Below are positions 3,471 to 46,919 of a stretch of DNA of 64,000 nt, piece by piece. Both the position numbers and the translations under genes were made by a program. Origin of the DNA: Patescibacteria group bacterium (GTDB lineage: Bacteria; Patescibacteriota; Patescibacteriia; XYB2-FULL-38-15); assembly GCA_041653675.1 (NCBI GenBank), contig JBAZEY010000005.1, positions 10,164 to 74,163 of the forward strand. The letters run 5' to 3'. Within the stretch, counting starts at the first letter, position 1; every line of letters starts with the position of its first letter. Below the pieces are notes generated by a model. That model had not been told where the DNA came from. It saw nothing but the letters and a program-made list of their open reading frames with translations, and ran no database searches.

Positions 3471-3502
3471 TATTATAACATGTTTTATTTTTAACGTTTT
3501 TG

Positions 3503-3606
3503 CCAATGCGGCGTCGACGCTTCGCGTCTCCTTAAAACCCTTCGGTTTTAATATTTCCGCCACGGGAAAACTATCGTTTTCCCGACCCCTTTCCAGTCCT
3601 CGCGTC
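3503..3606. repeat. Structured repeat element, copy A (~105 nt; three hairpins). Second copy at ~35300-35415 in opposite orientation.
   Basis: Core TTAAAACCCtTCGGTTTTAATATTTCCGCcACGGGAAAACTatCGTTTTCCCGACCCCTTTCC is >90% identical to the reverse complement of 35335-35396. Hairpins are AAAACC/GGTTTT, GGGAAAAC/GTTTTCCC and GACGC/GCGTC. Confidence 0.6.
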
Positions 3607-3612: not shown

Positions 3613-4164
3613 TTAGCGCTTTTGCCACTGCGGTGCTCTTCTCGCGCGCTTGAGGCCCGGTTTCTTTCTTTCCTTTACTCTAGGATCGCGAGTTAAAAAT
3701 CCAGCCTTGCGTAAATTCTTTTTAAAATTAACATTTAAAAGAACCAGTGCGCGAGAAATACCAAGGCGCACCGCCTCAGCCTGGCCGCGTAAACCGCCGC
3801 CAGATGATTTCGCTTCAATATCAACTTTATCCGCTTGGCCGACTGATTTTAATGGTCCGGAAACAATTTGTTCCATCTCTTCGGTCGGAAAACATTCTGT
3901 GTATAATTTTCCGTTAACCGTAATTTTGCCCTTGCCATTTTTATGAAGTCTCACGGTGGCAACAGCTTCTTTGCGCCGACCAATAGCATAAATATATCCC
4001 GATTTTTTATCTTCGGATATTTTTTCTTCGGCAACCGCCACTGTTTCTTTCTTTTCTTCCAGCTCCGGTTTTTCTTCCACCACTTTCTTTTTAGCAACTC
4101 TTTTCGCGGCCGGTTTGGTAGTCGCAGTTTTTGTCTTTTTAGGTTTTTTTATTTCCTCAGTCAT
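3613..4164 (-). CDS. rpsI: 30S ribosomal protein S9 with ~55-aa K/E-rich N-terminal extension
   Basis: C-terminal ...GYIYAIGRRKEAVATVRL...RDPRVKERKKPGLKRARRAPQWQKR is canonical S9. Confidence 0.9.
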   Translation of the reverse strand: MTEEIKKPKKTKTATTKPAAKRVAKKKVVEEKPELEEKKETVAVAEEKISEDKKSGYIYAIGRRKEAVATVRLHKNGKGKITVNGKLYTECFPTEEMEQIVSGPLKSVGQADKVDIEAKSSGGGLRGQAEAVRLGISRALVLLNVNFKKNLRKAGFLTRDPRVKERKKPGLKRARRAPQWQKR

Positions 4165-4891: not shown

Positions 4892-4953
4892 AATGAATTT
4901 TACTATGACGTGTAATAAGTTTTAACAATTAAATTTTGCCAGTCAACAGCAAA

Positions 4954-23291: not shown

Positions 23292-23292
23292 T

Positions 23293-23880: not shown

Positions 23881-24041
23881 TTTGGAGAATAATTTTTCGT
23901 TGCGAAACGAAGCAGTTTTGAGCGAAAAAGGCGAACAAACTACGACGTTTAATAAATTTAAATTAAGCGGAGAAGTTTTGAGCCTTTTGCAGCCAAAAAT
24001 GTGAGTTGCAGTAGAAAAGATTATTCTTCAAAGGGTCTCAA

Positions 24042-24644
24042 CTACCGCCAATTATAAATTTTGTCTTCTAGCGTCACATCTCGCGGACGGCCGGAAATAG
24101 TCCATCTTACTTCCGACCTAACCCTGATGCCAATTTTTTCTTCTCCCCCGCCGCAAGGATTTCCAGTAATCGTTTCCGTCTCTGTCGCCGCGTTAAAACA
24201 AATCGGATCAAGGGTGATGATTCGTGAATAAAGAGTTGCCGTGCCAGCCGGCGGCGCTACGTCTTGTAAATATAAATTTTCCGGACTGCGATATAATTTT
24301 GCCGCGGGATCGGAAACGACGTTCGGCGTAAAATCAAGGCTCCATTTATTCGTTGCCGGTTTAAAAACCGCAATTGCCGTAAAATCGTTTCCCAAAAAAA
24401 GTCCCGAATCCCAAACTAAATTTTTCAACCAATTAGCGTCTCGAAAATTGCGAACAACTTCCGCGCCTTCTTTCGCAAGATTTGAAGCCACCACTCTTGT
24501 CCCAGCTTCGTCTACTCCTTTCAGATTAGAAATGGTAAGTGAAAGGGCCCCCACCAAACCGGTTAAAATTATAGAGATGGCAACAATCATCTCCACCAAA
24601 CTTTGACCCTTTTCCGATTTTAAATTTTGAAAATTAAAAAGCAT
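24042..24644 (-). CDS. Type IV minor pilin (PilV-like)
   Basis: ...KGQSLVEMIVAISIILTGLVGAL... prepilin-type N-terminus. Confidence 0.5.
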   Translation of the reverse strand: MLFNFQNLKSEKGQSLVEMIVAISIILTGLVGALSLTISNLKGVDEAGTRVVASNLAKEGAEVVRNFRDANWLKNLVWDSGLFLGNDFTAIAVFKPATNKWSLDFTPNVVSDPAAKLYRSPENLYLQDVAPPAGTATLYSRIITLDPICFNAATETETITGNPCGGGEEKIGIRVRSEVRWTISGRPRDVTLEDKIYNWR

Positions 24645-24656
24645 AACTCAAATTTT

Positions 24657-25172
24657 TTATTCAACATCAATTCTCCCCGAAACCCGATTGACTAAAATTT
24701 TTCTGATCTTGCCGCTAATATTGTGCTTCAAATCTACTTCTAAAACATTGTCGGCTGTGCCGCCATTAATATAAGCTGTCGGCTTTGGTGGTTTAAAAAC
24801 CACACTGGAATTAGCAAGCGGCTGCACTCCCGTGATGACAACATTCTTTGCGAGAATAATTTTTCCATCCAATAAATCTTCACCCAAATCATATTTTTGA
24901 TTGCCGTTAAAATCAGCAAAAACAATATATTGAAGCGGCGTACCAAGAGTAAAATAAACTCCATATCCTCCTGGGGGCGTTATCCCACCTACCTGCTCTC
25001 CAGCCAAAGCCATATTCTGTGCTTTGCGTAAATTGGAAACAAGGGTATCGGCCGCGATTTTTAATTCATCGCTCTGACTTCCTCCCCGAAAATTTGTAAC
25101 AACCATGGCCGTCACAACGACAAAAATTCCCAAAGAAACAAGAAGTTCAATTATCGTAAAACCTTTTTTCAT
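24657..25172 (-). CDS. Type IV pilin / GspH-FimT-like pseudopilin
   Basis: MKKGFTIIELLVSLGIFVVVTAMVV... prepilin N-terminal methylation motif. Confidence 0.55.
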   Translation of the reverse strand: MKKGFTIIELLVSLGIFVVVTAMVVTNFRGGSQSDELKIAADTLVSNLRKAQNMALAGEQVGGITPPGGYGVYFTLGTPLQYIVFADFNGNQKYDLGEDLLDGKIILAKNVVITGVQPLANSSVVFKPPKPTAYINGGTADNVLEVDLKHNISGKIRKILVNRVSGRIDVE

Positions 25173-25173
25173 T

Positions 25174-25950
25174 TTAAAAATTTAAATACCAACTTAAAAC
25201 CGACGTACCAAAAAACATAGCAAAAATCGTTCCGGCAGCAAGAAATGTTCCAAATGGTACTTGGCTTTTCATTGTTTTCTTTTTGGAAACTACTAAAGCC
25301 AGACCGACAATCGCGCCCACTACGTAAGCAAAAAATAATGCCACGCCAAGTCCGCCCAACCCCAAAATCAATCCCATCAACGCTCCCAATTTTATATCTC
25401 CTCCACCAATCCATTTTCCTTTTGAAATTATATATTGCAAAAGAAAAAATCCGCCGCCGAGTACGCCCGCGATAAGTGGATCAAAAAGTCCGGCCCAGGA
25501 AATTTCTCCGCCATAAATTAACGGCAGCGTCACGAGAACAACGGCCGCCGCGGGATAAATAATTTTATCTGGAATTAAATAATATTTTAAATCTGAAACA
25601 AAAATCACGATTAGGGTAGCAATGATAAACCAGGTTCTTGCCAAAAGAAAAAAATCATAAGTTGTAAACCGCAGATCGTGAGGCAAATACGCGAATAAAA
25701 ATAAAATCGCCGTAGAAAGTTCCACGAGCGGATATTGCCAAGAAATTGGCTTCCCACAGTGCCGACATTTCCCTTTCTGAATTAAAAAACTCAAAACTGG
25801 AATGAGTTCAAATGGCCCCAAAACGTGGCGGCATTTTGGGCAATGGGACCGGCCGGTTAAAATTGATTCTCCGGCGTGTAGCCGCCAAATTACAACATTC
25901 AAAAAACTGCCGAAAATTAAGCCAAAAATAAAAACAATAACGTGTGCCAT
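25174..25950 (-). CDS. pilD: Prepilin peptidase (A24 family)
   Basis: N-terminal CPKCRH...CRHCGKPISWQYPLVEL zinc motif and multi-TM peptidase body. 258 aa. Confidence 0.85.
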   Translation of the reverse strand: MAHVIVFIFGLIFGSFLNVVIWRLHAGESILTGRSHCPKCRHVLGPFELIPVLSFLIQKGKCRHCGKPISWQYPLVELSTAILFLFAYLPHDLRFTTYDFFLLARTWFIIATLIVIFVSDLKYYLIPDKIIYPAAAVVLVTLPLIYGGEISWAGLFDPLIAGVLGGGFFLLQYIISKGKWIGGGDIKLGALMGLILGLGGLGVALFFAYVVGAIVGLALVVSKKKTMKSQVPFGTFLAAGTIFAMFFGTSVLSWYLNF

Positions 25951-25956
25951 ATTCGA

Positions 25957-25970
25957 GAATTATAACACGA
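25957..25970 (-). promoter_or_regulatory. Extended -10 (cGTGTTATAAT) only ~8 nt upstream of the pilD ATG: leaderless configuration
   Basis: The minus strand reads TTTCGTGTTATAATTCTCGAATATG. Confidence 0.4.
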
Positions 25971-25989
25971 AAACTAACAAAAACCAAAC

Positions 25990-26016
25990 AAAAAACTCCC
26001 GCGCGGGAGTTTTTTG
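25990..26016 (-). terminator. Palindromic intrinsic terminator CTCCCGCGCGGGAG flanked by A6/T7 (bidirectional), after pilA
   Basis: Perfect 14-nt GC-rich palindrome with U-runs on both strands. Confidence 0.7.
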
Positions 26017-26042
26017 ATCTCTCAAAATTTTGAGACTAAATT

Positions 26043-26522
26043 TTACTGCAGGCCTGCCGGAGTAACTTTGTGAGCTCCCTTTAGCAAATCTCCAGTATTT
26101 CCTTCCAAGTAAAAACAGAATTCGTAAGTAGTAGCCGTCGGGACTACTTTGACGGAATAATTACAAGGAGCTTGGACTGTCGCGTCACAAGCGGCGGCGC
26201 AAGCGGCTGCACCATTCGGATCTTTCAAATTAAGTATCCCTGGCAAAAATTCCGTAATTGGAGTCGCAGGAAGGACTGGACCATTACAAGAGCTAAGCAA
26301 AGCGCCCGGAGCGGCACAACCCGCCATCACGTAAGAATTATTGGCGCTAAACATCAATTCCATGGCTGTCTGAACCTGCTTCATATCTGAAACTCTCTTT
26401 GAGTCTCTTGATTTCTGTCTGGCTGAACTCAAAGCAACGACCGCCAAAGTTGAAAGCAAGCCGATAATGGCGATAACCACCAACAATTCAATCAAAGTGA
26501 AACCTTTTTTATTTTTAAACAT
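26043..26522 (-). CDS. pilA: Type IV major pilin
   Basis: MFKNKKGFTLIELLVVIAIIGLLSTLAVVALSSARQKSRDSKRVSDMKQ... is a classic type IVa pilin N-terminus. 159 aa with C-terminal Cys pairs. Confidence 0.8.
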   Translation of the reverse strand: MFKNKKGFTLIELLVVIAIIGLLSTLAVVALSSARQKSRDSKRVSDMKQVQTAMELMFSANNSYVMAGCAAPGALLSSCNGPVLPATPITEFLPGILNLKDPNGAAACAAACDATVQAPCNYSVKVVPTATTYEFCFYLEGNTGDLLKGAHKVTPAGLQ

Positions 26523-26580
26523 TATTTCACCCCCTTCCAGAAGCCGCGGGGAAACCGCGACTCAAAAGATTAATTTTATT

Positions 26581-26594
26581 TATTATAACACATT
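26581..26594 (-). promoter_or_regulatory. pilA promoter: extended -10 TGTGTTATAAT, then a GC hairpin and GGAAGGGGGTGA RBS
   Basis: The minus strand reads TTTTAAATGTGTTATAATAAATAAAATT...GTCGCGGtttccCCGCGGC...GGAAGGGGGTGAAATAATG. Confidence 0.55.
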
Positions 26595-27679
26595 TAAAAC
26601 TGCGTCGCCATGCTATACATTGGCAAAATAACTGCCGCAACCATAATACCAACGCCTATACCCATCAAAAGCATAATGAGCGGTTCCATAATCGTGGTTA
26701 AATTTCTCACCATGTTTTCCGTTTCCCGCGTGTAGAAATCCGTAATGCGCTCTAAGATGACGTCGATTTTTCCGGTTTGCTCGCCAATACCCAACATCTG
26801 CGTCACCATTACGGGAATTTCTTTACTCTTCGCGAAAACTGTCGTAATTGGATTTCCATCTTCCACCTCCCGCATGGTTTCCAAAATCAGATCTTTATAA
26901 ACCGCGTTACCGGTAATTTCCGCAACAATCTTTAAACTCCCGACGGTTTCCACCCCGCCGGTAAGAAGCGTTGTCAGGCCGCGAGTAAAACGAACTATAT
27001 AAATCCTTTTAAACAATTGTCCAAAAATTGGTAATTTTAATTTTAAAGTATCCCAATATTTTCTACCCAAGGGATATGAAATAAGATATCTTATTCCCAT
27101 AACAATTCCAATGATGAGAATCGCGAGCGCCCACCAATAATTTGTCATTACATCCGAAGTTCCAATAAGAATTCTCGTAGAAAGCGGCAATGTCCCTCCC
27201 GTCTCCTGTAAAATATCTGTCAGTTTAGGAATAACAAAAATCATCATTACCACACCGACAGCTACTAAGCTTAATAAAATAAACGCCGGGTAAATCATGG
27301 CGCCTTTTATTTTGCTTTGCAGGTCATAATCTTTTTCTCTTTGTGTCGCGAGATAATCCAAAACTTCATCCAGCTTCCCTGTCGTTTCTCCGGAGCGGAT
27401 TATATTAACAAAAAAATCATCAAAAATATGGGGGTACCGGCCAAGCGCGATAGAAAGTTTTGTTCCCCCTTCTACGTCAGCAGCGAGATTGGCCACAACT
27501 GTCCGTAAACTTTTATTAGTTGTTTGCCGGATTAAAACCTTTAAAGACTGAACAACCGGCACGTCGGCGGAAATCATCACGGAAAGCTGACGAGCAAAAA
27601 TAACCAAGTCCTTCGCCGGAACTCGGTTTAAAAAAGGTATTTTCGCAATATATTTGTCGAGGTTTATATCCATTGCCAT
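26594..27679 (-). CDS. pilC: Type IV pilus inner-membrane platform protein (GspF/PilC family)
   Basis: 361 aa with two GspF-type repeats and three TM segments. ...IIRSGETTGKLDEVLDYLATQ... Confidence 0.85.
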   Translation of the reverse strand: MAMDINLDKYIAKIPFLNRVPAKDLVIFARQLSVMISADVPVVQSLKVLIRQTTNKSLRTVVANLAADVEGGTKLSIALGRYPHIFDDFFVNIIRSGETTGKLDEVLDYLATQREKDYDLQSKIKGAMIYPAFILLSLVAVGVVMMIFVIPKLTDILQETGGTLPLSTRILIGTSDVMTNYWWALAILIIGIVMGIRYLISYPLGRKYWDTLKLKLPIFGQLFKRIYIVRFTRGLTTLLTGGVETVGSLKIVAEITGNAVYKDLILETMREVEDGNPITTVFAKSKEIPVMVTQMLGIGEQTGKIDVILERITDFYTRETENMVRNLTTIMEPLIMLLMGIGVGIMVAAVILPMYSMATQF

Positions 27680-27741
27680 AATTTTTCATCTATCACAACT
27701 GGGTAAAAACACAGAGTGTATTCAATATTTCTTAAATAAAA

Positions 27742-28302
27742 TCATCCTTCATCTTCAAATTTAACAACATTTTTTCCCCGCCGCTGGTTTTCTGATTCAA
27801 GTGTTTTAAGCATGCCGAATAAATCTGAGGAGTGTTTAATTTTGTTGAATGTGCCCTCATCTACGAAAAATACTTGCACACCATTTTCTATCATCGCCTC
27901 AAGAGCCGAAGGGACTTCAGTTTTTTCAACCGGAGCAACCGGCTTTTTACTAACCCACTCGTCCTCGCCCATGCCTTTGTGCGGGTCAAAAGAAAAACTG
28001 TCGCTATTAAATTTATAAATTGAACCGCCCTTGTCACACTTTAAAAAACGTTCTTTATCTTTGATTACTACATAAGGAATATCATTTATCTTTCCAATTA
28101 GAGACCATCTATCATCTGTTTCGCTAACTAAAAATGCTGTGGCAAGCGCTAAATCGGGAGTAGCGAAAATTACAGGCCCTTCTTTTGGATCACGGGTGCT
28201 TTTTGCCCGAGGTTCAAATTTCTTAATGTCCCTATTTGATGAAGCATGATATAAAAATGGCGGTTTTTTCTTTTCGGGAGAAAAATGTTGTTCACCTTCC
28301 AT
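27742..28302 (-). CDS. Hypothetical protein embedded between pilB and pilC
   Basis: 186 aa, soluble, no motif I recognise (…PPFLYHASSNRDIKKFEPR…). Co-oriented and tightly spaced within the pilus operon. Confidence 0.4.
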   Translation of the reverse strand: MEGEQHFSPEKKKPPFLYHASSNRDIKKFEPRAKSTRDPKEGPVIFATPDLALATAFLVSETDDRWSLIGKINDIPYVVIKDKERFLKCDKGGSIYKFNSDSFSFDPHKGMGEDEWVSKKPVAPVEKTEVPSALEAMIENGVQVFFVDEGTFNKIKHSSDLFGMLKTLESENQRRGKNVVKFEDEG

Positions 28303-28347
28303 AAAAATAAATTTTATTTGAACGAACTTTCGTCAAATACTGTACCG

Positions 28348-30081
28348 CTACTCCTGCGTCGCGCGCAAAACTTCTTCTACCGTCGTCAATCCTTCAAGCA
28401 CCTTTAAAAATCCATCTTGCTTCATATTGACCATGCCCTGATTTTTTCTTTCCTCATTAAAATTTTTGATATTAAATCCCTCGGCGATAATTCTTTTTAA
28501 ATTATCCGTAACTTCCAGAACTTCCGAAATTACAACTCGGCCAATATAACCTTCATTATTACAACGAGTGCAGCCTGCTCCGTGCCAAAGCTTAAGAGAA
28601 GAATCTAAATCAACTCCTGGCGGAAAAAATTTCTTCGGCATAGAAGCTAATTCTTTTTTGATATTTTCCGTGACCTCGGCGGGTACAGTAATCTCTTCCT
28701 TGCAATAAGAACAAATTTTTCTAACTAATCGCTGCGCGATGACTACGTTTAAAGTCGATGACAACAAAAATGGTTCTACTTTCATATCAATCAAACGCGG
28801 AATAGATCCAGCGGCGTCATTTGTATGCAGAGTAGAAAAAATTAAATGGCCAGTAAGCGCCGCGTGAATCGCGAGTTCAGCTGTTTCATTATCGCGAATT
28901 TCACCAACCATAATTATATTTGGATCCTGGCGCAAAAGAGAACGAAGCCCGGCCGCAAAAGAAAATCCAATTTCTGGCCTAATTTGCGATTGGTTTATCC
29001 CGCTAATATAATATTCTATCGGGTCTTCTAGGGTAACAATATTAATTCCCTCGCGGTTCACCATAGAAAGCGCCGTATAGAGGGTCGTTGATTTACCAGA
29101 ACCAGTCGGACCAGTAACGAGCAACAATCCATGCGGCCTTTTTATTTCTCGGCTGATAATTTCCACCGCCTGCCCACGAAACCCAAGATCTTCAAGAGAA
29201 ATAGCTTTTGTTGCTGTCTCCAAAACTCTCATCACAACTTTTTCTTGATCCATTAAGGGCAAAGTAGAAATACGAAAATCAACATTGCGGCCATTTATTA
29301 CCTGCCTGATTCTGCCGTCCTGCGGAATTCTCGTCTCGTCCAATTTTAAATTCGCCAAAACTTTGATTCTCGCAATCACGGCCGCGTGAATATAAGCCGG
29401 CAACGCGAGGCGAGGCCGAAGAACACCGTCAATTCTATAGCGAACTCTTGATTCTTTAAACGCGGGTTCAATATGAATATCTGAAGCCTTATTATCAACC
29501 GCATATTTCATAATCATCGCGACCATTTTGGAAACAGGCGCTTTTTTAATCGCTTCCGCCACCTCACCCACCGGAATCTCTTCAATTTCCTTTTCCTCCT
29601 CCCTAAATCTTTCTTCTGCTATTTCCAAAACCTTTTCTACCTCTTTTTTCAAAATCTCATATTTTTTTACGGCGTCCCGGAAACTAGCTGGGGAAATTAT
29701 AAAATATTTAACGGAGAAATTTTTTTCTTTAGCCAAAAAATTAATCGATTCCATGGCTGCAATATTTCCAGGATTTATCATGCCAACATTTACCGTACCA
29801 TCGAGTTTTTCAAAAGCAACGACATGGTTATTCTCCGCGACATCTTTCGAAATAATATTTAAATCTTCATATTTTATTTCTTTGCCAACCAAATTAACAT
29901 AAGGCAAATTAAAAACACGGCCCTTCATTTCGGCCAGCTTTTCTTCCTCAATCTGGCCAGATTCATCAATAAGGGCTTCTATGCTTTTTCCTGTTTTTTG
30001 GCTCTCCTCCATTAATACACCCGCTTTTGCGCCATCAATTAACTTCTCTTGGAGCAGAACACTGAGCAAGGGACTGTCCAT
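28348..30081 (-). CDS. pilB: Type IV pilus assembly ATPase (GspE/PilB family)
   Basis: N-terminal T2SSE_N-like domain. Walker A LLVTGPTGSGKSTT. C-terminal tetracysteine CSYCKEE...CTRCNNEGY. 577 aa. Confidence 0.9.
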   Translation of the reverse strand: MDSPLLSVLLQEKLIDGAKAGVLMEESQKTGKSIEALIDESGQIEEEKLAEMKGRVFNLPYVNLVGKEIKYEDLNIISKDVAENNHVVAFEKLDGTVNVGMINPGNIAAMESINFLAKEKNFSVKYFIISPASFRDAVKKYEILKKEVEKVLEIAEERFREEEKEIEEIPVGEVAEAIKKAPVSKMVAMIMKYAVDNKASDIHIEPAFKESRVRYRIDGVLRPRLALPAYIHAAVIARIKVLANLKLDETRIPQDGRIRQVINGRNVDFRISTLPLMDQEKVVMRVLETATKAISLEDLGFRGQAVEIISREIKRPHGLLLVTGPTGSGKSTTLYTALSMVNREGINIVTLEDPIEYYISGINQSQIRPEIGFSFAAGLRSLLRQDPNIIMVGEIRDNETAELAIHAALTGHLIFSTLHTNDAAGSIPRLIDMKVEPFLLSSTLNVVIAQRLVRKICSYCKEEITVPAEVTENIKKELASMPKKFFPPGVDLDSSLKLWHGAGCTRCNNEGYIGRVVISEVLEVTDNLKRIIAEGFNIKNFNEERKNQGMVNMKQDGFLKVLEGLTTVEEVLRATQE

Positions 30082-30082
30082 A

Positions 30083-30325
30083 TTAAAACTTCATAAAAGG
30101 ATCAATTTTTCCTTTTTGGCCAACTTCAATTGGCAATGTGATATTTTGTTTTAGATCGTTAAATTTTTCTTCAGAAAAAATTTTGGTATCAAAACTAGTA
30201 TCGATAGTTTTTCCGGCGCTCAAAACACTTTCCGTCTCGCCGATTATTAGCATGCTATACAAAAAATATCCGCCTCCGGCAATAATGAACAATATAACTA
30301 TTAAAATAAGTGCTCTCTTTTTCAT
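30083..30325 (-). CDS. Small single-TM protein in the pilus operon
   Basis: 80 aa. MKKRALILIVILFIIAGGGYFLY... Confidence 0.4.
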   Translation of the reverse strand: MKKRALILIVILFIIAGGGYFLYSMLIIGETESVLSAGKTIDTSFDTKIFSEEKFNDLKQNITLPIEVGQKGKIDPFMKF

Positions 30326-30336
30326 AAAATTAATTT

Positions 30337-30966
30337 TTAAAAACTAACCGCCGCAGAACTGCTTTGTGCCGGCACCACCCGATAAGTTTTTAAATTTAAA
30401 GTATAAGAAGTTGTTTCTGGCGTATAATTTATCGATATTAGGTCTATCAATCTTAAATTTTCTTCCAGGTCGGCTAAAAAATTTTTAAAATCTCCGTATG
30501 CATTTTCCGAATCAGGGCTCGCAGTTAAATTCAAAGAAACCTGGACTTCACTGACCCCTAAATTTTTTAAATCCCCCGCCGCTTCTTTTTCACTTATATC
30601 AACTGCCAAAACAATAATTTTGTTTTTTTGAGCCAAGGATTCAAACAAGGAAAATAACCCCGCCTCATCAACTTCACTGGGCAGCATCGTTTCTATTTTT
30701 TCCCTTTTTTCAGAAGAAATATCAGCGTAATTTTCTAATAATTTATTTGTGCCGCGAAAAAAATTAGACTCATCTTCCAATGCCTTCTTTTGCGAAATAA
30801 TTTTTTCTTGAGCGTCAACTAATCGGCCATATTCCGGCCAAACTAAAATATATCCCGCAACCGCGAAAATTACTATCAATAAAATTAAGAGCAACGACGA
30901 AGATGTTTTTTTCTTCATCTCCGGCTCTTCCTTTGGTTTGGGCTTTGTTTCTTCTACCTTCGCCAT
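30337..30966 (-). CDS. PilO-like pilus assembly protein (N-terminal TM plus coiled-coil plus periplasmic domain)
   Basis: Architecture and position between the PilN-like gene and pilB. 209 aa. Confidence 0.45.
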   Translation of the reverse strand: MAKVEETKPKPKEEPEMKKKTSSSLLLILLIVIFAVAGYILVWPEYGRLVDAQEKIISQKKALEDESNFFRGTNKLLENYADISSEKREKIETMLPSEVDEAGLFSLFESLAQKNKIIVLAVDISEKEAAGDLKNLGVSEVQVSLNLTASPDSENAYGDFKNFLADLEENLRLIDLISINYTPETTSYTLNLKTYRVVPAQSSSAAVSF

Positions 30967-30984
30967 AACTATTTTATTCTACAA

Positions 30985-32016
30985 TTATTTCAAAAAAATT
31001 TCCGAACTAAGCTGCAGTTTCGCATCAAAATTAACCTCCACCACGTTCCCCTCGGTATCAACGCTTGCCGAGGCAGACATAATAGAAACTTTAGAAACTC
31101 GGTCGTCGGCCCGGAAGGAAACGATCTGTCTTGCCATTGCTCTATAACTTTTCGCCACGCCCGACAGAACAACCTGTCCATCGCTTCCTCCAATTAAATT
31201 AACAAAATAAACATCTGCCACGGTATTTTTTTCCAAAAAGGAGAAAAAGTTTGTCCAATAAATATGGCTTCCTAAAAGTTTATCCGCTGTTTTTAATTTT
31301 TTTTGAAAAAATTGCGCCTGATCTTTTTCCAGGGCTAGTTCCCTATTTTTTTTATCCATCACTTCCAAATCTGCTTCAACTTTTTGTAAAACTAACTCTG
31401 TTTTATTTTCATACCATTTCAATGCCAAATATGCTCCCACTCCGATAAATGCCAAAATAACTGCCACGACGACAAGGAGAATTATCTGCCTTGATTTTCC
31501 CCTTTTTTCTTTTACGGCTACTTCCTCCACTGGAATTAAAGTAATATCAGTTTTTTTATCAGTGGAAATTTTTTCCCCGGACGGCTTTGATAAATTTGTC
31601 TTTGGGGCGGAGTTTTGCGGCCGCTTCATTTCAATTTTCTGCGGCGGTCTTTGTTCTATAATTGGTCTTGGTGGAGGCAAAATTGGTTTTAGCGGGAGCG
31701 GCGGAGAAAACCGAGTTGGCGGAGGGGGAGAAACCGGAGCAGCTTTTGGAACCTCTTTTTGCATCTTAAAAACAGAAAGGTCTGATTCTTCAGCCTGACC
31801 TGTTTGTTTTGGCGGAGGAGAAATTGGCTTTAGTGTTTGTTTTGAACTAAAAAATTTCCCCATGAAAGTTGATTTTTGGGGCTTCTCCTCCGTTTCGGGA
31901 ACGAATAATTTTACTTCTGGCCGCTCTTCCTTTTTTCTTTTTTCTTCCGGCCTCTGAAGTTCTAGAGGCAGCAACTCAATATCATCGTTCCCGTTGTTTT
32001 TGTTGCCGTTTGGCAT
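30985..32016 (-). CDS. PilN-like pilus assembly protein with Pro-rich N-terminal region
   Basis: Single TM (IILLVVVAVILAFIGVGAYLAL) followed by a PilN-like domain. Lies immediately downstream of pilM. Confidence 0.45.
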   Translation of the reverse strand: MPNGNKNNGNDDIELLPLELQRPEEKRKKEERPEVKLFVPETEEKPQKSTFMGKFFSSKQTLKPISPPPKQTGQAEESDLSVFKMQKEVPKAAPVSPPPPTRFSPPLPLKPILPPPRPIIEQRPPQKIEMKRPQNSAPKTNLSKPSGEKISTDKKTDITLIPVEEVAVKEKRGKSRQIILLVVVAVILAFIGVGAYLALKWYENKTELVLQKVEADLEVMDKKNRELALEKDQAQFFQKKLKTADKLLGSHIYWTNFFSFLEKNTVADVYFVNLIGGSDGQVVLSGVAKSYRAMARQIVSFRADDRVSKVSIMSASASVDTEGNVVEVNFDAKLQLSSEIFLK

Positions 32017-32068
32017 AACTTCAAAAATACCAGCGCAAAAACTAAGTATTTAATTTTTTATCTTTAAT

Positions 32069-33121
32069 TTATTCTAATTCACGCATTGCGAGTCCTATCG
32101 CCACGGAAAATTTTGGTCCGACTTGGTCTAAAATGGGACGTAATTCTTCGGGATAAATTATTCTCGCCCAAGGATTTCCAGCATAAACTCTCATACTAAG
32201 CGCGCCCGAAAGATATTCAACAAAATTCGGAAGAAGCGCTCCCCCGCCGGTCAAAATAACTTTTTCAATTTTTTTGCCCGACCCACCCTCTTGATTTTGA
32301 TAAATATTCGCGCAATATTTAATTTCATTCAAAAGCATCGAGAGTGCTCTTTCTACGATTTTAGAAACCCCTCCGCCCGCGCCCGGCGACATTCCAGCGT
32401 CGTATTTCATCTGCTCAGCCTGATTAAAATCAATTCCAAGGCTCGCGGCAATTTCTTTAGTAATATTTATTCCACCGACATTTAAAGAACGATTTAAAAA
32501 TGGAACTCCATTTTCAATAATAGAAATCGCAGTGCTCGCCGCGCCCATATCCACTACAATTACCGTAGATTTATCAACGCCCACCAGCGCGCGGACCAAA
32601 GCAAAAGTTTCCGTTTCCAAACTCACAAGATTCAACCCGGCGCCTTTAAAAATATCCAAATATTTTTTGACCAAATTTTTAGCCGCCGCAGTAAGAAGAA
32701 CTCTTGTCGTTTTTTGTGGCACAGCGGGCGTTACGGCGCCGACTGCAGCTTCGGCAGTCAAAACCTTCCAGTCTAAAATCATCTCTTCTAAGGGCAAAGG
32801 GATAATTTTTTTCGCCTCCCACCGCACTGCTTCAGCTAAATCTTTTCCCGGCGCGGATGGAATGTTTATTACTGAACTAAAAACCGACGCGGAAGGCAAT
32901 GCCGCTACTGCTTGTTTTGAAACCGTTCTCGCCTTAGCACAAATTTTTTTAATCAAATCAATTGACCGTTCCGGGGTTTCCGTAAATTCTTTCTCTGGAT
33001 AACCAACACTTTGTTCCGTGTAACCGTAAGTCAAAAGCCTCGCCCTCCCGGCTTCTTCTTTTAATTCTACAATTTTGATGCTCGTCGCGCCCAAATCAAC
33101 GCCCAAAAAACTTTTGGTCAT
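32069..33121 (-). CDS. pilM: Type IV pilus assembly protein PilM (actin-like ATPase fold)
   Basis: MTKSFLGVDLGATSIKIVELKEEAGRARLL... plus the downstream ...ILTGGGALLPN... match PilM/FtsA-like motifs. 350 aa. Confidence 0.8.
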   Translation of the reverse strand: MTKSFLGVDLGATSIKIVELKEEAGRARLLTYGYTEQSVGYPEKEFTETPERSIDLIKKICAKARTVSKQAVAALPSASVFSSVINIPSAPGKDLAEAVRWEAKKIIPLPLEEMILDWKVLTAEAAVGAVTPAVPQKTTRVLLTAAAKNLVKKYLDIFKGAGLNLVSLETETFALVRALVGVDKSTVIVVDMGAASTAISIIENGVPFLNRSLNVGGINITKEIAASLGIDFNQAEQMKYDAGMSPGAGGGVSKIVERALSMLLNEIKYCANIYQNQEGGSGKKIEKVILTGGGALLPNFVEYLSGALSMRVYAGNPWARIIYPEELRPILDQVGPKFSVAIGLAMRELE

Positions 33122-34885: not shown

Positions 34886-35302
34886 TTATTTAAACTTCGT
34901 ACTGTGGTCAATCGCCTCATTAACCAATTTATCCGCTTCTTTATTTTTTTCCCGCGGCACATGAGTAAAAGTCGCTTTTTTAAAACCCATGCTCAAATTC
35001 CAAACCTGAACAAAAAGCGCCGCTAAATCTTTATCCTTAACTTTATATTCGCGATTTATTTGTTTCACAACCAGCTCGCTATCCAGAAAAAAATTTAATT
35101 CCTCTGCGCCAATTTTTTTTACCTCTTCAAGCGCCAAAATCACGGCTTTGTACTCTGCTTGATTATTTGTCGCCTCGCCAATATATTTTTTGTGCTGCCC
35201 AACCAACTCGTTGCCATTCCAAATCACAACGCCAATTCCCGCCGGTCCGGGATTTCCCCGCGCCCCACCATCGGTAAAAATTTGAAGTTTGTTATAAATC
35301 AT
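34886..35302 (-). CDS. rnhA: Ribonuclease HI
   Basis: MIYNKLQIFTDGGARGNPGPAGIGVV...EYKAVILALEE... is an RNase H fold. The track ORF extends to a TTG at 35332. An alternative duplicated start exists 170 bp upstream. Confidence 0.85.
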   Translation of the reverse strand: MIYNKLQIFTDGGARGNPGPAGIGVVIWNGNELVGQHKKYIGEATNNQAEYKAVILALEEVKKIGAEELNFFLDSELVVKQINREYKVKDKDLAALFVQVWNLSMGFKKATFTHVPREKNKEADKLVNEAIDHSTKFK

Positions 35303-35460
35303 AATGTTAAATAAAATTAACGCCCGGACCAAGGAAAGGGGTCGGGAAAACGCAGTTTTCCCGTAGCGGAAATATTAAAACCGAGGGGTTTTAAAGAGGC
35401 GTGAAGCGCCGATGGTCTGGGATTTCCCCGCGCCCCACCATCGGTAAAAATTTGAAGTTT
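35244..35460. repeat. 42-47-bp direct repeat (35244-35290 and 35414-35460), each containing codons ~4-18 of rnhA, flanking repeat element copy B
   Basis: AAACTTCAAATTTTTACCGATGGTGGGGCGCGGGGAAATCCC(A/G)GACC occurs twice, 170 bp apart. The upstream copy follows its own ATG (MAYQKLQIFTDGGARGNP...). Confidence 0.6.
35300..35415. repeat. Structured repeat element, copy B (reverse complement matches 3503-3606)
   Basis: Reverse-complement core is TTAAAACCCcTCGGTTTTAATATTTCCGCtACGGGAAAACTgcGTTTTCCCGACCCCTTTCC. Stems are conserved and loops differ. Flank hairpin GGCG/CGCC vs GACGC/GCGTC in copy A. Confidence 0.6.
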
Positions 35461-35473
35461 TTGATATGCCATA

Positions 35474-37198
35474 TTATTCACTCATTTTTAAATCAATAAT
35501 TTTCATCTGCAACTCCCTATTTCCATTCCACTCATTGACATCTACTTCAAAAACTACGTCAACTTTATCTCCCACTTTTAATTTCTGGCACCACTCACCA
35601 AAACAAAAACCGATAAATTTTTTCCGAACACCATTCCCCTGACTTAAACTTATTCTTAAATGATTTCCGTTTGTGCCCACACTCTCAAAACTTTCCACCG
35701 CAAAACCTCTCCCCAAATACTTTGGCCGCTCATTTGCCCTACCAAACGGAGCGAATTTTTCTAAAAGTTCAAACAACTCCCAATTTATTTTTTCCAAACG
35801 CACTTCTGCGTCAATATTCAACGTCCGTACAAGTTCCATGCCGGCTAATTTTTTTTCCGCGATTTTTTTTAATATTTTTTCAAATTTTTTTAAATCTTTT
35901 TTATTCTTTAAAGTAAACCCGCAGGCTCCGGCGTGTCCGCCATAATGGGATAAAAGTTCTCTTGTCTCGTGGAGGCTTTCGGTAATATCAAATTCAGGAA
36001 TACTTCTGCCTGAACCCATAATATCTTCTTCCCTTTCGGTCATGATAAAAGTCGGCCGCCAAAAATTTTCGGCAATTTTCCCAGCAACTAAACCCACAAT
36101 CCCGACTGGCCATCCTTCTCCCTTGGCAAATAAAATTTTCTGTTCACCAATGTCTTCTCCAATTTGCGCCTTTGCCTCGGCCATAACCCGCTCGCTCAAA
36201 CTCTGCCGTCCTTCATTAGTCTTATTTAGAGAACTAACCAATTCATCAACTTCATTTGCGTCATCCGTTTTTAAAAGTTCGTAAGCTTGATTCGCGTGGT
36301 CAATTCTGCCAGCGGCATTCAGGCGCGGCCCGATTTGAAAAGCTACATTCTTTGCGTCAAGATCTTTATTTTTATTTAATCCCAAGGACTCAATTAACTT
36401 TTTTAAACCAATCCGTTGTGTTTTATTCAAAACTAAAAGACCGTATTTTACCAAAGTGCGATTCTCTCCCAAAAGCGGCATAATATCAGTAATCGTTGCG
36501 ATTGCTACTAAATCCAACAGCCATTTTTCAAATCCTTCGGGATCAATTTTAAAATCCAAAGTTTTAAATTTGGGGCTTCGAAGAATTGCTTGCACCAATT
36601 TAAAAGCCACTCCCGCCCCAGCTAATTCGCGAAATGGGTATTTTTCGCGAGCAAGATGCGGATCAATAATCGCGAAAGCAGCTTCTGGTAAATTTGGCGG
36701 CTCGGCGTGATGGTCGGTAATAATCACATCCATACCAAGTTCCGTGGCTCTTTTTATTTCCAGCCGGTTACTAATTCCGCAGTCCGTTGTGATTATTAAA
36801 TTTACTCCATTTTTCCCAAGTTCTTCCACGGTTTGCATATTAAGTCCATAACCTTCAAGCTCGCGATGAGGCAAATAAACCTGGGCGTCAGCACCCATTG
36901 CCGAAAGAGTAGCTACCATAACCAACGCCGAACAAACTCCATCGGCGTCGTAATCACCATGAACTGTAATTTTTTCCTTTTTCTCTATGGCTAGAAAAAC
37001 CCGATCCACTGCTTTTTCCATATCTAAAAATAAAAACGGATCGTGAATATCCTGGCTATAATCGGGATATAAAAATTCATCAATCTTTTCCTGAGTCTTA
37101 ACACCCCGGTTAGCAAGCAATTGCAAAATTACCGGATCAATCTCCGGAAATTTATTTTTAAATTCTTCGCTGATTGTTTCGGCTACCCGCCACTTCAT
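35474..37198 (-). CDS. recJ: Single-stranded-DNA-specific exonuclease RecJ
   Basis: DHH motifs (...TVHGDYDADGVCS..., ...ITTDCGIS..., ...IITDHH...) and a DHHA1 C-terminal domain. 574 aa. Confidence 0.9.
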   Translation of the reverse strand: MKWRVAETISEEFKNKFPEIDPVILQLLANRGVKTQEKIDEFLYPDYSQDIHDPFLFLDMEKAVDRVFLAIEKKEKITVHGDYDADGVCSALVMVATLSAMGADAQVYLPHRELEGYGLNMQTVEELGKNGVNLIITTDCGISNRLEIKRATELGMDVIITDHHAEPPNLPEAAFAIIDPHLAREKYPFRELAGAGVAFKLVQAILRSPKFKTLDFKIDPEGFEKWLLDLVAIATITDIMPLLGENRTLVKYGLLVLNKTQRIGLKKLIESLGLNKNKDLDAKNVAFQIGPRLNAAGRIDHANQAYELLKTDDANEVDELVSSLNKTNEGRQSLSERVMAEAKAQIGEDIGEQKILFAKGEGWPVGIVGLVAGKIAENFWRPTFIMTEREEDIMGSGRSIPEFDITESLHETRELLSHYGGHAGACGFTLKNKKDLKKFEKILKKIAEKKLAGMELVRTLNIDAEVRLEKINWELFELLEKFAPFGRANERPKYLGRGFAVESFESVGTNGNHLRISLSQGNGVRKKFIGFCFGEWCQKLKVGDKVDVVFEVDVNEWNGNRELQMKIIDLKMSE

Positions 37199-37589: not shown

Positions 37590-38522
37590 CTAGCGCTTCT
37601 TGCCGCCGCCGTTCGAGCCCTTCTGGCCGCCCTTGTGGCGCTTGCCGGCACCGAAGCGCGTGTTGCCCACGGCCAGGGCGAGTTTCCGGCGACGGTCCCA
37701 ACGCCGCGCTTCCCGCTCGGCGCGGCTGAGCTGCGGCTTCACCTCGGTCGCGACCGCCGGCTTCTTCGGCTCGGGCTGCTTCGGGGGCGAAACGACCTGG
37801 TCCGCGTCCTTCTTGTTCCGCCGCTCGATCTCCATCTGGGCGCCGCGGTAGTCGAAGAGTTGGATGCTCCTCAACGCCCCGGCCTTGATCAGGACGGCGT
37901 ACTGCTCGCGACAGATCCCGGCGACCGCGCGCTTGCCGTCCTTGTCCTTCACGATCGCGTAGCGCGTTACGAACTCGTCGTCGCGGTGGAGTAGGCAGTT
38001 CGGCACGCCGCAAACCACCCTACCCTTCTCGTCCCGGAGCGCCTGGAGCGGCTCGGCCGTGCCGACCACGACCGCCTTCCAGTAGTCCACGGCGGCGGCC
38101 TCGGCGCGGATCGCGGCGTTCCTCACGCCGACGATCCCGTAGAGCGCCCCGATCTTCATCAGGTGGCGGCGCTCTTCGGGCGACATCCGCCCCTCGGCGC
38201 AGGGGTTGCAGATCGGCTCGAAGCCCCAGAGCTTCAGACCGTCCCGCTCGATCTGGACGAGGAGAGCGAGCTTGATCTTGCCGACGGAGTTCCCGTCGGC
38301 GTGCCCGCACTTCGAGCAGACCCGCTTCGGCTTCGGCGCTTCGGTCACGACGATCGGGTCGTCGACCGGCTTCTCCGGCTCGACCGCGACCGGCTCCGCC
38401 ACCTCCGTCGTCATGGACGGCATGGCGGCGAGGACCATCTCTTCGTACTCTTCATCGGTCAGGTTCCCGAGGCCCGCCGACACCGGCACCACGATTCCCA
38501 TCGTCGTCTCCGCCATGTTCAT
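37590..38522 (-). CDS. Hypothetical zinc-finger protein with basic C-terminal tail (GC island 3), 310 aa
   Basis: AAGGAGA RBS 1-2 nt before the ATG (MNMAETTMG...). CSKCGH...CNPC and CGVPNC motifs. C-terminal ...RRWDRRRKLALAVGNTRFGAGKRHKGGQKGSNGGGKKR. ~65-70% GC by eye. Confidence 0.5.
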   Translation of the reverse strand: MNMAETTMGIVVPVSAGLGNLTDEEYEEMVLAAMPSMTTEVAEPVAVEPEKPVDDPIVVTEAPKPKRVCSKCGHADGNSVGKIKLALLVQIERDGLKLWGFEPICNPCAEGRMSPEERRHLMKIGALYGIVGVRNAAIRAEAAAVDYWKAVVVGTAEPLQALRDEKGRVVCGVPNCLLHRDDEFVTRYAIVKDKDGKRAVAGICREQYAVLIKAGALRSIQLFDYRGAQMEIERRNKKDADQVVSPPKQPEPKKPAVATEVKPQLSRAEREARRWDRRRKLALAVGNTRFGAGKRHKGGQKGSNGGGKKR

Positions 38523-45787: not shown

Positions 45788-45837
45788 TTGACAAGTTACT
45801 AAATATATTCTATTATTAAAAGTCCACAATTTTGTGG
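45788..45837 (+). promoter_or_regulatory. Island 4 cassette 1 promoter TTGACA-N17-TATTAT plus operator-like palindrome CCACAA-tt-TTGTGG (45824-45837)
   Basis: TTGACAagttactaaatatattcTATTATtaaaagtCCACAATTTTGTGG read directly. Followed by AGGAGA RBS and an ATG at 45862. Confidence 0.55.
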
Positions 45838-45861
45838 GATGGGATAGAGGAGAAAGAGTCC

Positions 45862-46194
45862 ATGAAACTCAAGCCGACCGTCTTAGAATTGCAGGTGTTG
45901 GAGCTGACTGAGTACATGAGACTCAAGCCGACCAACATCACCTTGGGCGCGGGTTGCGTGATCGGTTTCTACCGGAACGAACGTTGCATCGTGGTTATGC
46001 CCGAATCGGGCAGCGGAGTTCGGATCGACTGGCCGGGCACAAACGACGACAAGCGGATCGCGCCTCCGTGCATCAAGACGGAGAAGGATTTTCTCGACGT
46101 CGTCAATCTCTTCGCCGCGATGCTCGGTCTCCAGGCCGTCCCCGACAGCTTCGAGCGGCCGTACGGGATCGCCCTTCGCCTCGTCAAGCGGTAG
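45862..46194 (+). CDS. Hypothetical protein (GC island 4, cassette 1), ~110 aa, with duplicated N-terminal MKLKPT/MRLKPT
   Basis: RBS GAGGAGAaagagtccATG. 21-nt repeat ATGAAACTCAAGCCGACC / ATGAGACTCAAGCCGACC in frame 54 nt apart. GC-rich. No domain recognised. Confidence 0.45.
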   Translation: MKLKPTVLELQVLELTEYMRLKPTNITLGAGCVIGFYRNERCIVVMPESGSGVRIDWPGTNDDKRIAPPCIKTEKDFLDVVNLFAAMLGLQAVPDSFERPYGIALRLVKR

Positions 46195-46331: not shown

Positions 46332-46869
46332 TAGAAAGAAGGAGGCCGTGCGCTACTTGTTCATTCCGAGTTGCGAAGTGGCGATGAAGAATGTGCTGAC
46401 TGGCACGACTACCGAAAAGCGCCTCATCCGCGGCCTCGATCTTTGGCGGGCAGGCGGCTACGACGCCATCATCGTGACGGGCGGCATCTATTTGCCGCCA
46501 GAACAACAGACGATCCCCTCGGGAATCTTGATGGAATACTGGCTCATCGAGCACGGTGTGCCAGAGAAGGCCATCATCTGCGAAGATCACTCACGCGATA
46601 CCTTCGAAAACATTTCTGGCGCCCTGACACTCATCGCCGACGACCCCGCGCCAGAATTCACGGTCGTGACCCACTGGCAGCACGCGCTGCGGTTCTGGGT
46701 AACCTTCCACCTCGCGCACCGGCGCAAGATTCGCCTCGTGCCGATGTGGTACTGGACCGATCTCAAGGGTTTTGTGTTGGAGTGGGCATTCCTGCTCGTA
46801 CATCTTCTCGATCGAAACGGAACCGGCCGGATCGCCACTCGGAACCGCGACAGTCACAACAAGTCGTAA
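46327..46869 (+). CDS. DUF218 (YdcF/ElyC/SanA-like) domain protein (GC island 4, cassette 2). True start probably downstream of the AAGGAGG at 46339-46345 (TTG 46356 or ATG 46384).
   Basis: DUF218 hallmarks ...YDAIIVTGGI... and ...CEDHSRDTFEN... GC-rich. The coordinates given are the track ORF. Confidence 0.5.
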   Translation: MTRKKEAVRYLFIPSCEVAMKNVLTGTTTEKRLIRGLDLWRAGGYDAIIVTGGIYLPPEQQTIPSGILMEYWLIEHGVPEKAIICEDHSRDTFENISGALTLIADDPAPEFTVVTHWQHALRFWVTFHLAHRRKIRLVPMWYWTDLKGFVLEWAFLLVHLLDRNGTGRIATRNRDSHNKS

Positions 46870-46889
46870 AACAATTCGGCCACGGCCGG

Positions 46890-46919
46890 ATAGAGCCTTC
46901 GACAAGCTCTCTTTTTTTA
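46890..46919 (+). terminator. Second copy of the AGAGCCTTCGACAAGCTCTC plus T7 terminator
   Basis: 19/19 identity of the stem-loop with 46241-46261. Confidence 0.65.

Follow-up and report, generated by a model that had tools for sequence, protein, structure and literature searches.

Integrative elements that occupy the ends of genes include SXT in the 5′ end of prfC, e14 in the 3′ end of icd, and the islands of tRNA genes with their crossover in the T-loop; the integration sites in tRNA genes reportedly fall into classes set out by Williams in 2002. Non-autonomous integrative elements that are mobilised in trans are known from Streptococcus as cis-mobilizable elements (CIMEs), and integrative mobile elements exploiting Xer (IMEX) of the CTX-phage type use a folded single-stranded attP hairpin that is recombined by host XerCD. 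Among insertion sequences (IS), IS1634 makes long target duplications of variable length, and "insertion with long target duplication" is said to have been described for restriction-modification genes by Nobusato in 2000. This last class is characterized by flanking repeats that exceed 30 bp and vary in length, by the lack of a mobility gene, and by occurrence mostly in naturally competent bacteria; the paper that gives these features (Furuta et al. 2010, PMC2853133) also cites target duplications of 19-26 bp for IS1630. Here we describe E, an element of about 80 nucleotides (nt) that lies between recJ and rnhA in a Patescibacteria group bacterium (contig JBAZEY010000005.1, assembly GCA_041653675.1) and that, judged from its sequence, belongs to an apparently undescribed family of small mobile elements widespread in the candidate phyla radiation (CPR). 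Throughout, the window is the whole stretch of 64,000 nt of this contig that was analysed.

On the minus strand recJ is followed by its stop codon, a single base, an orphan rnhA ATG, the ~80-nt element (E copy B), a 20-nt spacer, and finally the functional rnhA ATG (Table 1). The original prediction, made by a model from the sequence alone, had recognized here a direct duplication of the 5′ end of rnhA, with two ATGs 170 nt apart (MIYN at 35302 and MAYQ at 35472), a repeat element between them, and an upstream copy that reads into the element and stops after about 50 codons. All of these descriptive statements are correct. The duplication was recovered by a repeat finder as direct repeat D5 (35239-35308 versus 35409-35478), which is 70 nt long and 86% identical with a start-to-start spacing of 170 nt; its central 42 nt are perfect between the arms, a length of exact repeat that chance would not be expected to produce in 64 kilobases (kb). 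The orphan start reads ATG GCA TAT CAA AAA CTT (MAYQKLQIF...) from 35472 downward and the functional start ATG ATT TAT AAC AAA CTT (MIYNKLQIF...) from 35302 downward, the latter continuing as an RNase H of 138 amino acids. Gene identities rest on Pfam, directly for recJ and through RNase_H in its homologs for rnhA, whose product has 7930 homologs with Pfam RNase_H/RVT_3, the best of them 98% identical. The ATG at 35302 is likely the true rnhA start. Gene callers can be expected to place spurious open reading frames (ORFs) of 54-56 amino acids across E (35317-35481 and 3438-3608, both on the minus strand), and an extension of rnhA to the TTG at 35332 is possible.

Table 1. Features at the two E loci of the window, with the evidence for each.
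Feature	Position	Strand	Evidence or remark
Orphaned, degenerate rpsI 3′ end	3491..3511	+	18/21 nt identical to 3613-3633; minus-strand reading ..PHWQKR*
E copy A, between queA and rpsI, antisense to its neighbors	3513..3594	+	Inverted repeat I1; alignment; covariance model 3531-3594, 89.1 bits
Pyrimidine tail of copy A, ACCCCTTTCC	3585-3594	+	
Functional rpsI 3′ end, second repeat arm	3613..3633	+	..PQWQKR*, stop 3613-3615; rpsI itself 3613-4164 (-)
rnhA, RNase HI family, 138 amino acids, intact	34886..35302	-	ORF list; homologs with Pfam RNase_H/RVT_3
Downstream repeat arm, functional rnhA start, continuous with the gene	35239..35308	-	D5; allele comparison; ATG 35302-35300, MIYNKLQIFTDGGARGNPGPAG
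Spacer from c′ to the functional start, part of the inserted DNA	35303..35322	-	Sequence, cgttaattttatttaacatt; contains the stop of the read-through ORF
Read-through ORF, 51 codons, from the orphan start through E	35317..35472	-	Stop 35319-35317, 14 nt before the real rnhA ATG
c′ of copy B, TGGTCCGGG	35323..35331	-	Reverse complement of the target CCCGGACC(A)
E copy B	35333..35413	-	Alignment with copy A; covariance model match 35333-35395, 84.9 bits
Pyrimidine tail of copy B, ACCCCTTTCC	35342-35333	-	
Hairpin 1 of copy B	35410-35398	-	GGCG CTTCA CGCC
5′ end of copy B			ATCG (GTCG in most family copies)
Upstream repeat arm, orphaned native rnhA start, native context kept	35409..35478	-	D5; L118, L119; ATG 35472-35470, MAYQKLQIFTDGGARGNP
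recJ	35474..37198	-	ORF list; Pfam DHH, DHHA1 and RecJ_OB on an identical protein; stop 1 base before the orphan start

It had also been proposed that the insertion either duplicated the gene start or carried it along, so that rnhA kept a working 5′ end, and that relatives should be compared at the rnhA-recJ junction. That comparison supports the proposal. In 4 relatives (L112, L114, L117, and L118; L-numbers denote fetched genome or metagenome loci) the site is empty: E is absent, and 1-5 nt separate the stop of recJ from the ATG of rnhA. These relatives have an RnhA 88-93% identical to that of the window and the same recJ-rnhA-pilM synteny. The empty site of L118 reads gagtgaataatATGGCATATCAAAAA..., and both its context and its MAYQ allele match the upstream copy in the window. 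Two further relatives, L119 (RnhA 98% identical) and L038 (88%, on a 567-kb contig), are filled and have the architecture of the window with sequence differences. With 4 empty and 2 filled loci, the two kinds of allele are interleaved among close relatives. The spacer is likewise kept, with small changes, in the filled loci L038 and L103 and is missing at the empty sites. Because close relatives have empty sites and L118 shares the MAYQ allele, this comparison of sequences confirms that E copy B is an insertion and that the upstream MAYQ copy is the native rnhA start.

A collapsed or chimeric duplication produced during assembly is the trivial alternative, and we regard it as next to inconceivable. 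An identical stretch is found in a separate metagenome contig (L035), which rules out an assembly artefact, and the architecture recurs in diverged form in independent assemblies (L119, L038, L103, and L111) and at about 50 other targets. The 170-nt spacing of the repeats fits within one short read, and nothing was found in favor of such an artefact.

A second copy of E, copy A, lies at the 3′ end of rpsI, and a covariance model run on the window returned these 2 copies only. The repeat of copy A consists of the final seven codons plus the stop of rpsI. The suggestion that other copies of the element would be flanked by duplicated gene ends is thus borne out in the window itself, and it extends to about 50 further copies from other genomes. 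An exact 28-nt core was found at 25 loci among species-representative genomes and a 23-nt pattern at 85 metagenome loci; the covariance model gave 98 matches in the fetched loci, including six divergent ones outside the exact-pattern set. The family has at least 90 distinct copies in CPR genomes and metagenomes, and since the covariance model adds divergent copies that the exact pattern missed, the true family is larger than the sample. All named hosts belong to the CPR/Patescibacteria save for one contig labelled Nanoarchaeota (L020, JAUYPG010000071.1), on which the neighbors of E (an MnmA-like gene and an alpha/beta hydrolase) look bacterial; a binning error or a transfer is possible. E was not found in IMG/VR viral contigs, GenBank phages, or PLSDB plasmids, and no description of it was found in the searched literature.

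Every informative copy shares one layout: an orphaned gene end, E, a short segment that we call c′, 0-2 kb of cargo, and the same gene end again with the intact gene attached. Oriented by E this can be written as x abc / E / c′ / (cargo) / abc de, where abc is the repeated gene end. Measured against mismatched-partner controls, which are themselves inflated since different copies share targets, 39 of 73 distinct copies have a flanking direct repeat beyond the 99th percentile. Repeats span 14-106 nt with a median of 30, and 13 of 53 show no mismatch; examples include rnhA in L103 (65/65), L036 (100/106), L032 (69/70), and L058 (50/50). The original prediction had judged the rnhA repeat unusually long for a simple target-site duplication, and this holds. 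The 8-27 nt that immediately follow the tail of E make up segment c′, which reads as the reverse complement of the stretch of target adjoining the 5′ end of E. In 29 copies out of 53 its best inverted match ends no more than 3 nt from where the left repeat ends (binomial p ~1e-20). The lengths of repeat and c′ vary and are uncorrelated.

The cargo between c′ and the right repeat may be absent, a few hundred nt long (L062, L105), or made up of genes. In L110 an array at 1271-5273 runs from a tRNA-Asp 3′ fragment through E1, a gene for 490 amino acids, a second tRNA fragment, E2, and three genes to the intact tRNA-Asp. The cargo genes after E2 encode 245, 61, and 277 amino acids, the last product DinD-like by eye, and a GIY-YIG-like ORF lies just upstream of the array. 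In L018 (2405-2658) two identical E copies stand in tandem 190 nt apart among three copies of the first ~20 codons of a translational GTPase gene (MPRQYPMEKVRDIGVVAHIDA...), an arrangement that could come from tandem integration or from unequal crossing-over.

The target genes were classified for 72 distinct copies, 51 of which could be assigned a side of the intact gene. Thirty lie beside tRNA genes of many specificities; their junction falls within the T-loop, and 30 of 30 have E antisense to the tRNA. Eleven occupy the 5′ ends of protein genes, all in sense orientation (rnhA, rplK, translational GTPases at the G1 motif, a family-4 glycosyltransferase, and others), and about 10 occupy 3′ ends, all antisense (rpsI, rplR, a PolX-like gene, and others). 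Since tRNA and 3′-end targets are antisense and 5′-end targets sense, the intact gene always lies 3′ of E, as it does in 51 of 51 classified copies. The conserved sites hit in one lineage are found again in unrelated ones and with other E subfamilies, and the target junctions share no common motif beyond the similarity of tRNA T-loops. Two tRNA-targeting subfamilies stand out in the left flank of E (L008, L041, L105, L108, L031/L074): in one the orphan T-loop has a 10-nt insert, CGCTTCGCTA, that resembles the 5′ arm of E, and in another the orphan T-loop reads TCAC instead of GAAC at no fewer than 12 different tRNA genes. The strict orientation rule and the inverted target copy c′ go beyond the original prediction, as does the conserved read-through frame considered below.

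E itself is built from three hairpins and a pyrimidine tail. Hairpin 1 varies with compensatory changes, its stem being GACGC/GCGTC in copy A and GGCG/CGCC in copy B, while hairpin 2 is TTAAAACC-N4-GGTTTTAA in both copies and is followed by the invariant linker TATTTCCGCNA; hairpin 3 has the form CGGGAAAAC-N3-5-GTTTTCCCG, with N3 in copy B. The covariance model, built from 35 diverse E cores, represents two of these hairpins. In the alignment fitted to that model 98.1% of their pairs are Watson-Crick and 13 of 17 show compensatory changes, a result that 0 of 500 shuffles equalled, and shifting the partner column abolishes the pairing. G.U pairs occupy only 5 of 1525 cells in the modelled hairpins, and a direct count for hairpin 3 gives 720 Watson-Crick, 2 G.T, and 3 A.C pairs. 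Because the hairpins are almost purely Watson-Crick, the asymmetry of G.U and A.C pairs allows no transcribed strand to be assigned. Such purity suits a structure formed in DNA, or in both strands, and would be less typical of a selected RNA fold.

The tail of E is the mirror image of the pyrimidine (3′) arm of hairpin 3. Set in parallel register against the purine arm of that hairpin, it gives counts of G-C 16, G-T 10, A-C 3, and A-T 58 (Fisher 3e-8, uncorrected for relatedness), a covariation with the pattern expected of an intramolecular pyrimidine-motif triplex. E has no terminal inverted repeats of its own, as its ends (GTCGC... and ...CCCCTTTCC) are not inverted copies of each other. The only inverted pair is c and c′, which differs in every copy and equals the target sequence. 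In Rfam, a scan of the window at the gathering threshold gave one tRNA only, and a permissive scan of 35150-35600 gave chance-level matches only.

One of the three frames through E is open, and in 11 of 11 insertions at 5′ ends the orphan start is in phase with it. The resulting ORF reads ..SLKPxGFNISATGKLPF.. across E in five copies at rnhA, two at rplK, three at GTPases, and two at a glycosyltransferase; for at least 5 independent targets the chance of a shared frame is at most ~(1/3)^5 = 0.004. It ends 6-26 nt short of the real start codon; in L038 stop and start overlap as ATGA. With native spacings of 1-5 nt between the recJ stop and the rnhA start, native rnhA is, to judge by its position, translationally coupled to recJ. 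The filled site could then act as a relay, in which ribosomes ending at the recJ stop would start at the orphan ATG, translate through the hairpins to the read-through stop, and re-initiate at the real ATG.

A conserved structure with a conserved read-through frame might also be a host-beneficial cis element of ancient, vertical origin (a terminator, an insulator, a processing site, or a small RNA gene), with the flanking repeats as by-products. Its core is nearly invariant across very different CPR lineages, and between the window and L119 it is identical at 61 of 63 positions where flanking third codon positions are 89-94% and the spacer 78% identical; this conservation, however, is inflated by ascertainment, the loci having been fetched by an exact core pattern. 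Filled and empty sites are patchy among close relatives, the orientation of E to transcription depends on the gene end that was hit, tandem and cargo-bearing arrays exist, and the two copies within 64 kb sit at unrelated genes. We consider a resident cis element of this kind very improbable.

The two copies of the gene start at a filled site bear on whether the functional one was duplicated in place or carried in. In protein-coding targets, differences between the repeat copies fall 18/11/48 on codon positions 1/2/3, where neutral decay of the orphan would predict about 29/27/44% (rough chi-square p ~0.004). Forty-one of these codon differences are synonymous and 18 non-synonymous (9 and 0 in L055), a pattern that looks like that of orthologs from different lineages. 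At rnhA the window and L119 have the same first four codons (ATG GCA TAT CAA) in their orphans, as does the empty site of L118, and the functional copies start with ATG ATT TAT AAC (MIYN) in the window and ATG GTC TAC AAT (MVYN) in L119. In both genomes 4-5 changes within 9 nt adjoin a tract of 42-47 nt that is identical, or nearly so, within each genome. The MIYN allele occurs in other lineages (P0009, P0010), and P0002 has MAYQ like the orphan. The outer part of the functional copy is foreign; point mutation seems an implausible source for such a start, and recombination with foreign DNA would fit. The inner tract shows synonymous states shared by both copies of each genome (GGG GCG in the window, GGA GCT/GTT in L119, GGC GGC..CGA GGT in L038), and its lineage-specific character in both copies implies exchange, or later gene conversion, inside the repeat. 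Of the two options left by the original prediction, the sequences favor "carried with it", at least for the outer part of the repeat.

We give an even chance to the reading that copy B is an integrated, non-autonomous member of a mobile family whose unit brings a replacement gene end and enters by a Campbell-type exchange. The mobile unit would consist of E, c′, optional cargo, and a copy of the target gene end, and it would pass through a circular or folded intermediate. This unit would enter the chromosome through an exchange within the gene-end sequence common to both, or at its edge, and with the crossover in the shared inner tract the outer segment of the host would be left on the left of E and that of the element on its right. 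The host gene end would be orphaned 5′ of E, and on its other side the element-borne end would continue into the remainder of the gene, so that the interrupted gene is whole and the junctions form a long direct repeat. Such a cycle fits the codon bias, the foreign start allele, and the shared inner tract together. E would act in it as a DNA-level structure of ~80 nt, three Watson-Crick hairpins plus a tail, which pairing of c with c′ could close. By analogy with attC or the CTX-phage attP hairpin, the folded E may be the site for a recombination or replication enzyme supplied in trans.

Several observations weigh against this account. E copies that hardly differ (96-98% identical) occur at unrelated targets, and each is accompanied by a c′ and a repeat of its own; examples are L024 (tRNA-Pro) against L102 (glycosyltransferase), whose E copies are 96% identical, and L007 against L019. 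This implies that retargeting is frequent on the timescale of E divergence and that c′ is renewed together with the repeat, and a model in which the element simply carries its own gene end would leave their joint renewal unexplained. Many repeats are perfect and extend into host-specific intergenic sequence (65/65 in L103, 100/106 in L036), an outcome that de novo duplication would give as well. In diverged copies c′ is not better conserved than the repeats (8.6/12 against an expected 9.3/12), with no sign of pairing maintained in place; a role of c′, if any, would lie at the time of movement. The codon-position bias could come in part from later replacement of alleles by homologous recombination. 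Clustering of the ORFs within 3.5 kb of 92 distinct copies returned only target genes, with no recurrent recombinase, transposase, or reverse transcriptase, and in the window neither an obvious recombinase nor, in Pfam scans of ten odd proteins, any recombinase was seen.

The main competitor to gene-end carriage is de novo transposition with a long, variable target duplication, the foreign-looking copies arising later by recombination of inserted alleles. E would be joined to a nick between c and d, its 3′ end would snap back and copy 8-27 nt to make c′, and a strand switch would duplicate 14-106 nt; only insertions whose duplication spans a gene end would survive. The variable and uncorrelated lengths of repeat and c′ speak for such an event, as do the perfect repeats with host-specific intergenic DNA (L103, L036, L032, and L058), and c′ is target-specific even between near-identical E copies, as expected if one event makes c′ and repeat together. 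In some copies, namely L071 (27 nt), L051 (14 nt), and L084 (16 nt), c′ lies directly against the repeat and matches its reverse complement over the full length. Long target duplications without a mobility gene are also on record, mostly from naturally competent bacteria (PMC2853133), and the window has a type IV pilus cluster. The third-position bias, however, exceeds the neutral expectation, and the functional copies of the window and L119 begin with a non-native allele beside 42 identical nt. Random insertion would leave unexplained the repeated use of the same sites in unrelated lineages (the tRNA T-loop, rnhA codon 18, the 3′ ends of rpsI and rplR, and the GTPase G1 motif), and in the "TCAC" tRNA subfamily c′ runs 4 nt across the junction, which is impossible for snap-back from a nick. 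We judge de novo transposition unlikely, if worth serious weight; a de novo event may just as well have come first, as the founding step, with homing of the complete unit thereafter. The agreement of c′ with the right repeat copy (128 sites) and the left (57) does not separate the two models, because a neutral orphan copy diverges anyway.

The enzyme that moves E is hypothetical under either model. No integrase was found, by eye, among the cargo genes of L110, L105, and L062, and most copies have no cargo. Encoded in the window are a TrwB-like ATPase and a PD-(D/E)XK nuclease, together with a type IV pilus or competence-like gene cluster at 22434-33121, in which a pilin N-terminal sequence is repeated at 23805, 25109, and 26450. 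The cluster would be relevant if E spreads by natural transformation. A reverse transcriptase gene adjoins E at two loci, L010 (reverse transcriptase 87-1244, E 1328-1390) and L107 (252-1346 and 108-170, respectively), where E lies 93 nt downstream of the gene (Pfam RVT_1, E = 7.5e-24). Its N-terminal region we take to resemble the enzymes of diversity-generating retroelements. An ORF for a four-helix bundle (Avd-like) stands beside the reverse transcriptase in L107, and a 16S rRNA gene follows in L010. These E copies have no flanking repeat; after them comes a 13-bp hairpin in which the second arm, ATTTCCGCTACGG, repeats the E linker and the first arm is complementary to that linker. In a tblastn search the L010 reverse transcriptase was found in L010 and L107 only, and not in the window. 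With two related loci that lack flanking repeats, the linkage may be coincidental.

A retroelement model draws on this linkage; in it E is the structured recognition end of an RNA copied into the target by a reverse transcriptase supplied in trans, as in short and long interspersed nuclear elements (SINE/LINE), and the duplications arise by target-primed reverse transcription. Reverse transcriptases are common in the CPR, and target duplications of variable length are typical of target-primed reverse transcription. The reverse transcriptase is linked, however, in 2 related loci out of ~92. An RNA fold under selection would not usually be almost free of G.U pairs, as the hairpins are, and E matches nothing in Rfam. 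The orientation of E to host transcription flips with the type of gene end, and the differences between repeats are not adenine-specific (by eye in L016). We regard a retroelement as improbable. Translational bypassing, a group II intron, an IS110 bridge RNA, a TnpB/IscB guide RNA, a DNA uptake sequence, and a rolling-circle origin (the linker is TAATATT-like) were dropped as well, their defining features being absent or beyond test.

Several other features of the window and its relatives may be recorded here. A direct repeat of 244 nt with 70% identity joins 13726-13969 and 56954-57197, its first arm inside a TrwB/TraG-like ATPase gene (12474-14639). Orphan ORFs, none with a Pfam match, coincide with peaks of G+C content (0.51-0.55 in a genome of ~41%) at 1900-2358(+), 10955-11785(-), 37590-38522(-), 45832-46194(+), and 46371-46925(+), and a similar GC-rich ORF adjoins the reverse transcriptase in L107 (2290-3090).

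CPR genomes are tiny and gene-dense with almost no neutral space, and E lands inside essential and tRNA genes and would return a replacement gene end; at 5′ ends it would keep ribosomes moving through to the real start codon, where they would re-initiate. A bolder form of gene-end carriage makes E a programmable integration module, in which a c:c′ duplex around the three-hairpin/triplex scaffold would specify the target by sequence identity and a host or trans-acting enzyme would exchange strands at the base of the scaffold. We put this forward tentatively, as a possibility we think more probably wrong. If c′ does specify the site, E would be a minimal cargo carrier with no element-encoded protein, capable of programmable, gene-sparing integration and apparently confined to the CPR, and of interest both to mobile-element biology and as a design principle; swapping c/c′ and the gene end would retarget it to any conserved gene terminus. 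On a conservative reading, E explains puzzling gene-end duplications and pseudo-starts in CPR annotation, predicts mis-called start codons and spurious short ORFs such as the 51-54-amino-acid product here, and marks recent gene flow among CPR lineages.

Among described systems, SXT, e14, and the tRNA islands share with the E family the flanking direct repeats of a gene end, a gene rebuilt from element-borne sequence, and an orphaned native end. The tRNA islands resemble it further in that the T-loop to the 3′ end is the commonest target and that cargo accretes in tandem at one tRNA gene, as in L110. These elements, however, span kilobases, encode their own integrase, and use one target per family, whereas E is ~80 nt long, has no linked integrase, occupies many unrelated targets, and carries its own c′; of the features of an integrative element, the gene-end repeat with a restored gene is present in E and an integrase inside the element is absent. 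Like CIMEs and integron cassettes with attC, the E family lacks a recombinase of its own, and its short structured modules bound variable cargo and form arrays. Gene-restoring integrative elements would be the closest functional analogs of E, followed by the CIMEs mobilised in trans.

The nearest mechanistic analogy for the c-E-c′ arrangement may lie in attC and the CTX-phage attP. In attC the folded structure is conserved rather than the sequence, whereas the sequence of E is strongly conserved; attC also has R″/L″-L′/R′ boxes and a GTTRRRY core and inserts at attI without target duplication, whereas E always comes with a 14-106-nt gene-end repeat. The GTTRRRY core is absent from the E consensus, the targets are gene ends, and no intI-like neighbor was found near 92 copies, all of which sets E apart from integrons. 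The c-E-c′ unit is comparable to IMEX attP in that its inverted segments, ~90 nt apart, could fold into a duplex that mimics the chromosomal target, for host enzymes to act on, with Watson-Crick-only hairpins, although this is an analogy only. IMEX depend on a single dif target and Xer-binding sequences, whereas E targets many gene ends of differing sequence, and no dif-like site was identified.

With miniature inverted-repeat transposable elements (MITEs), IS1630, and IS1634, E shares its small, non-coding nature, several copies per genome, and variable target duplications. It differs from MITEs and IS in lacking terminal inverted repeats and a related transposase, in its strict gene-end orientation, and in repeat copies that look foreign to each other; its duplications (14-106 nt, median 30) are neither short nor of fixed length, and no cognate transposase lies within 3.5 kb of 92 copies. 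IS200/IS605 and palindrome-associated transposable elements (PATE) were set aside because, hairpins notwithstanding, E has no fixed junction motif and always has long repeats, and a diversity-generating retroelement because a reverse transcriptase is adjacent at only 2 loci and the differences fall over all bases with a third-position bias.

The class of "insertion with long target duplication" is the one whose features E does show, with variable repeats of more than 30 bp, an empty site in a relative, and no mobility gene (PMC2853133), and its repeats likewise overlap the 3′ ends of genes. This class is descriptive, with no conserved element, whereas an E module and an inverted target copy are present at every event. 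That class apart, E has the defining features of none of the compared systems. What appears to be new is that a conserved, structured module of ~80 nt with no linked protein combines many unrelated conserved targets with a segment complementary to the target and a read-through frame built into it.

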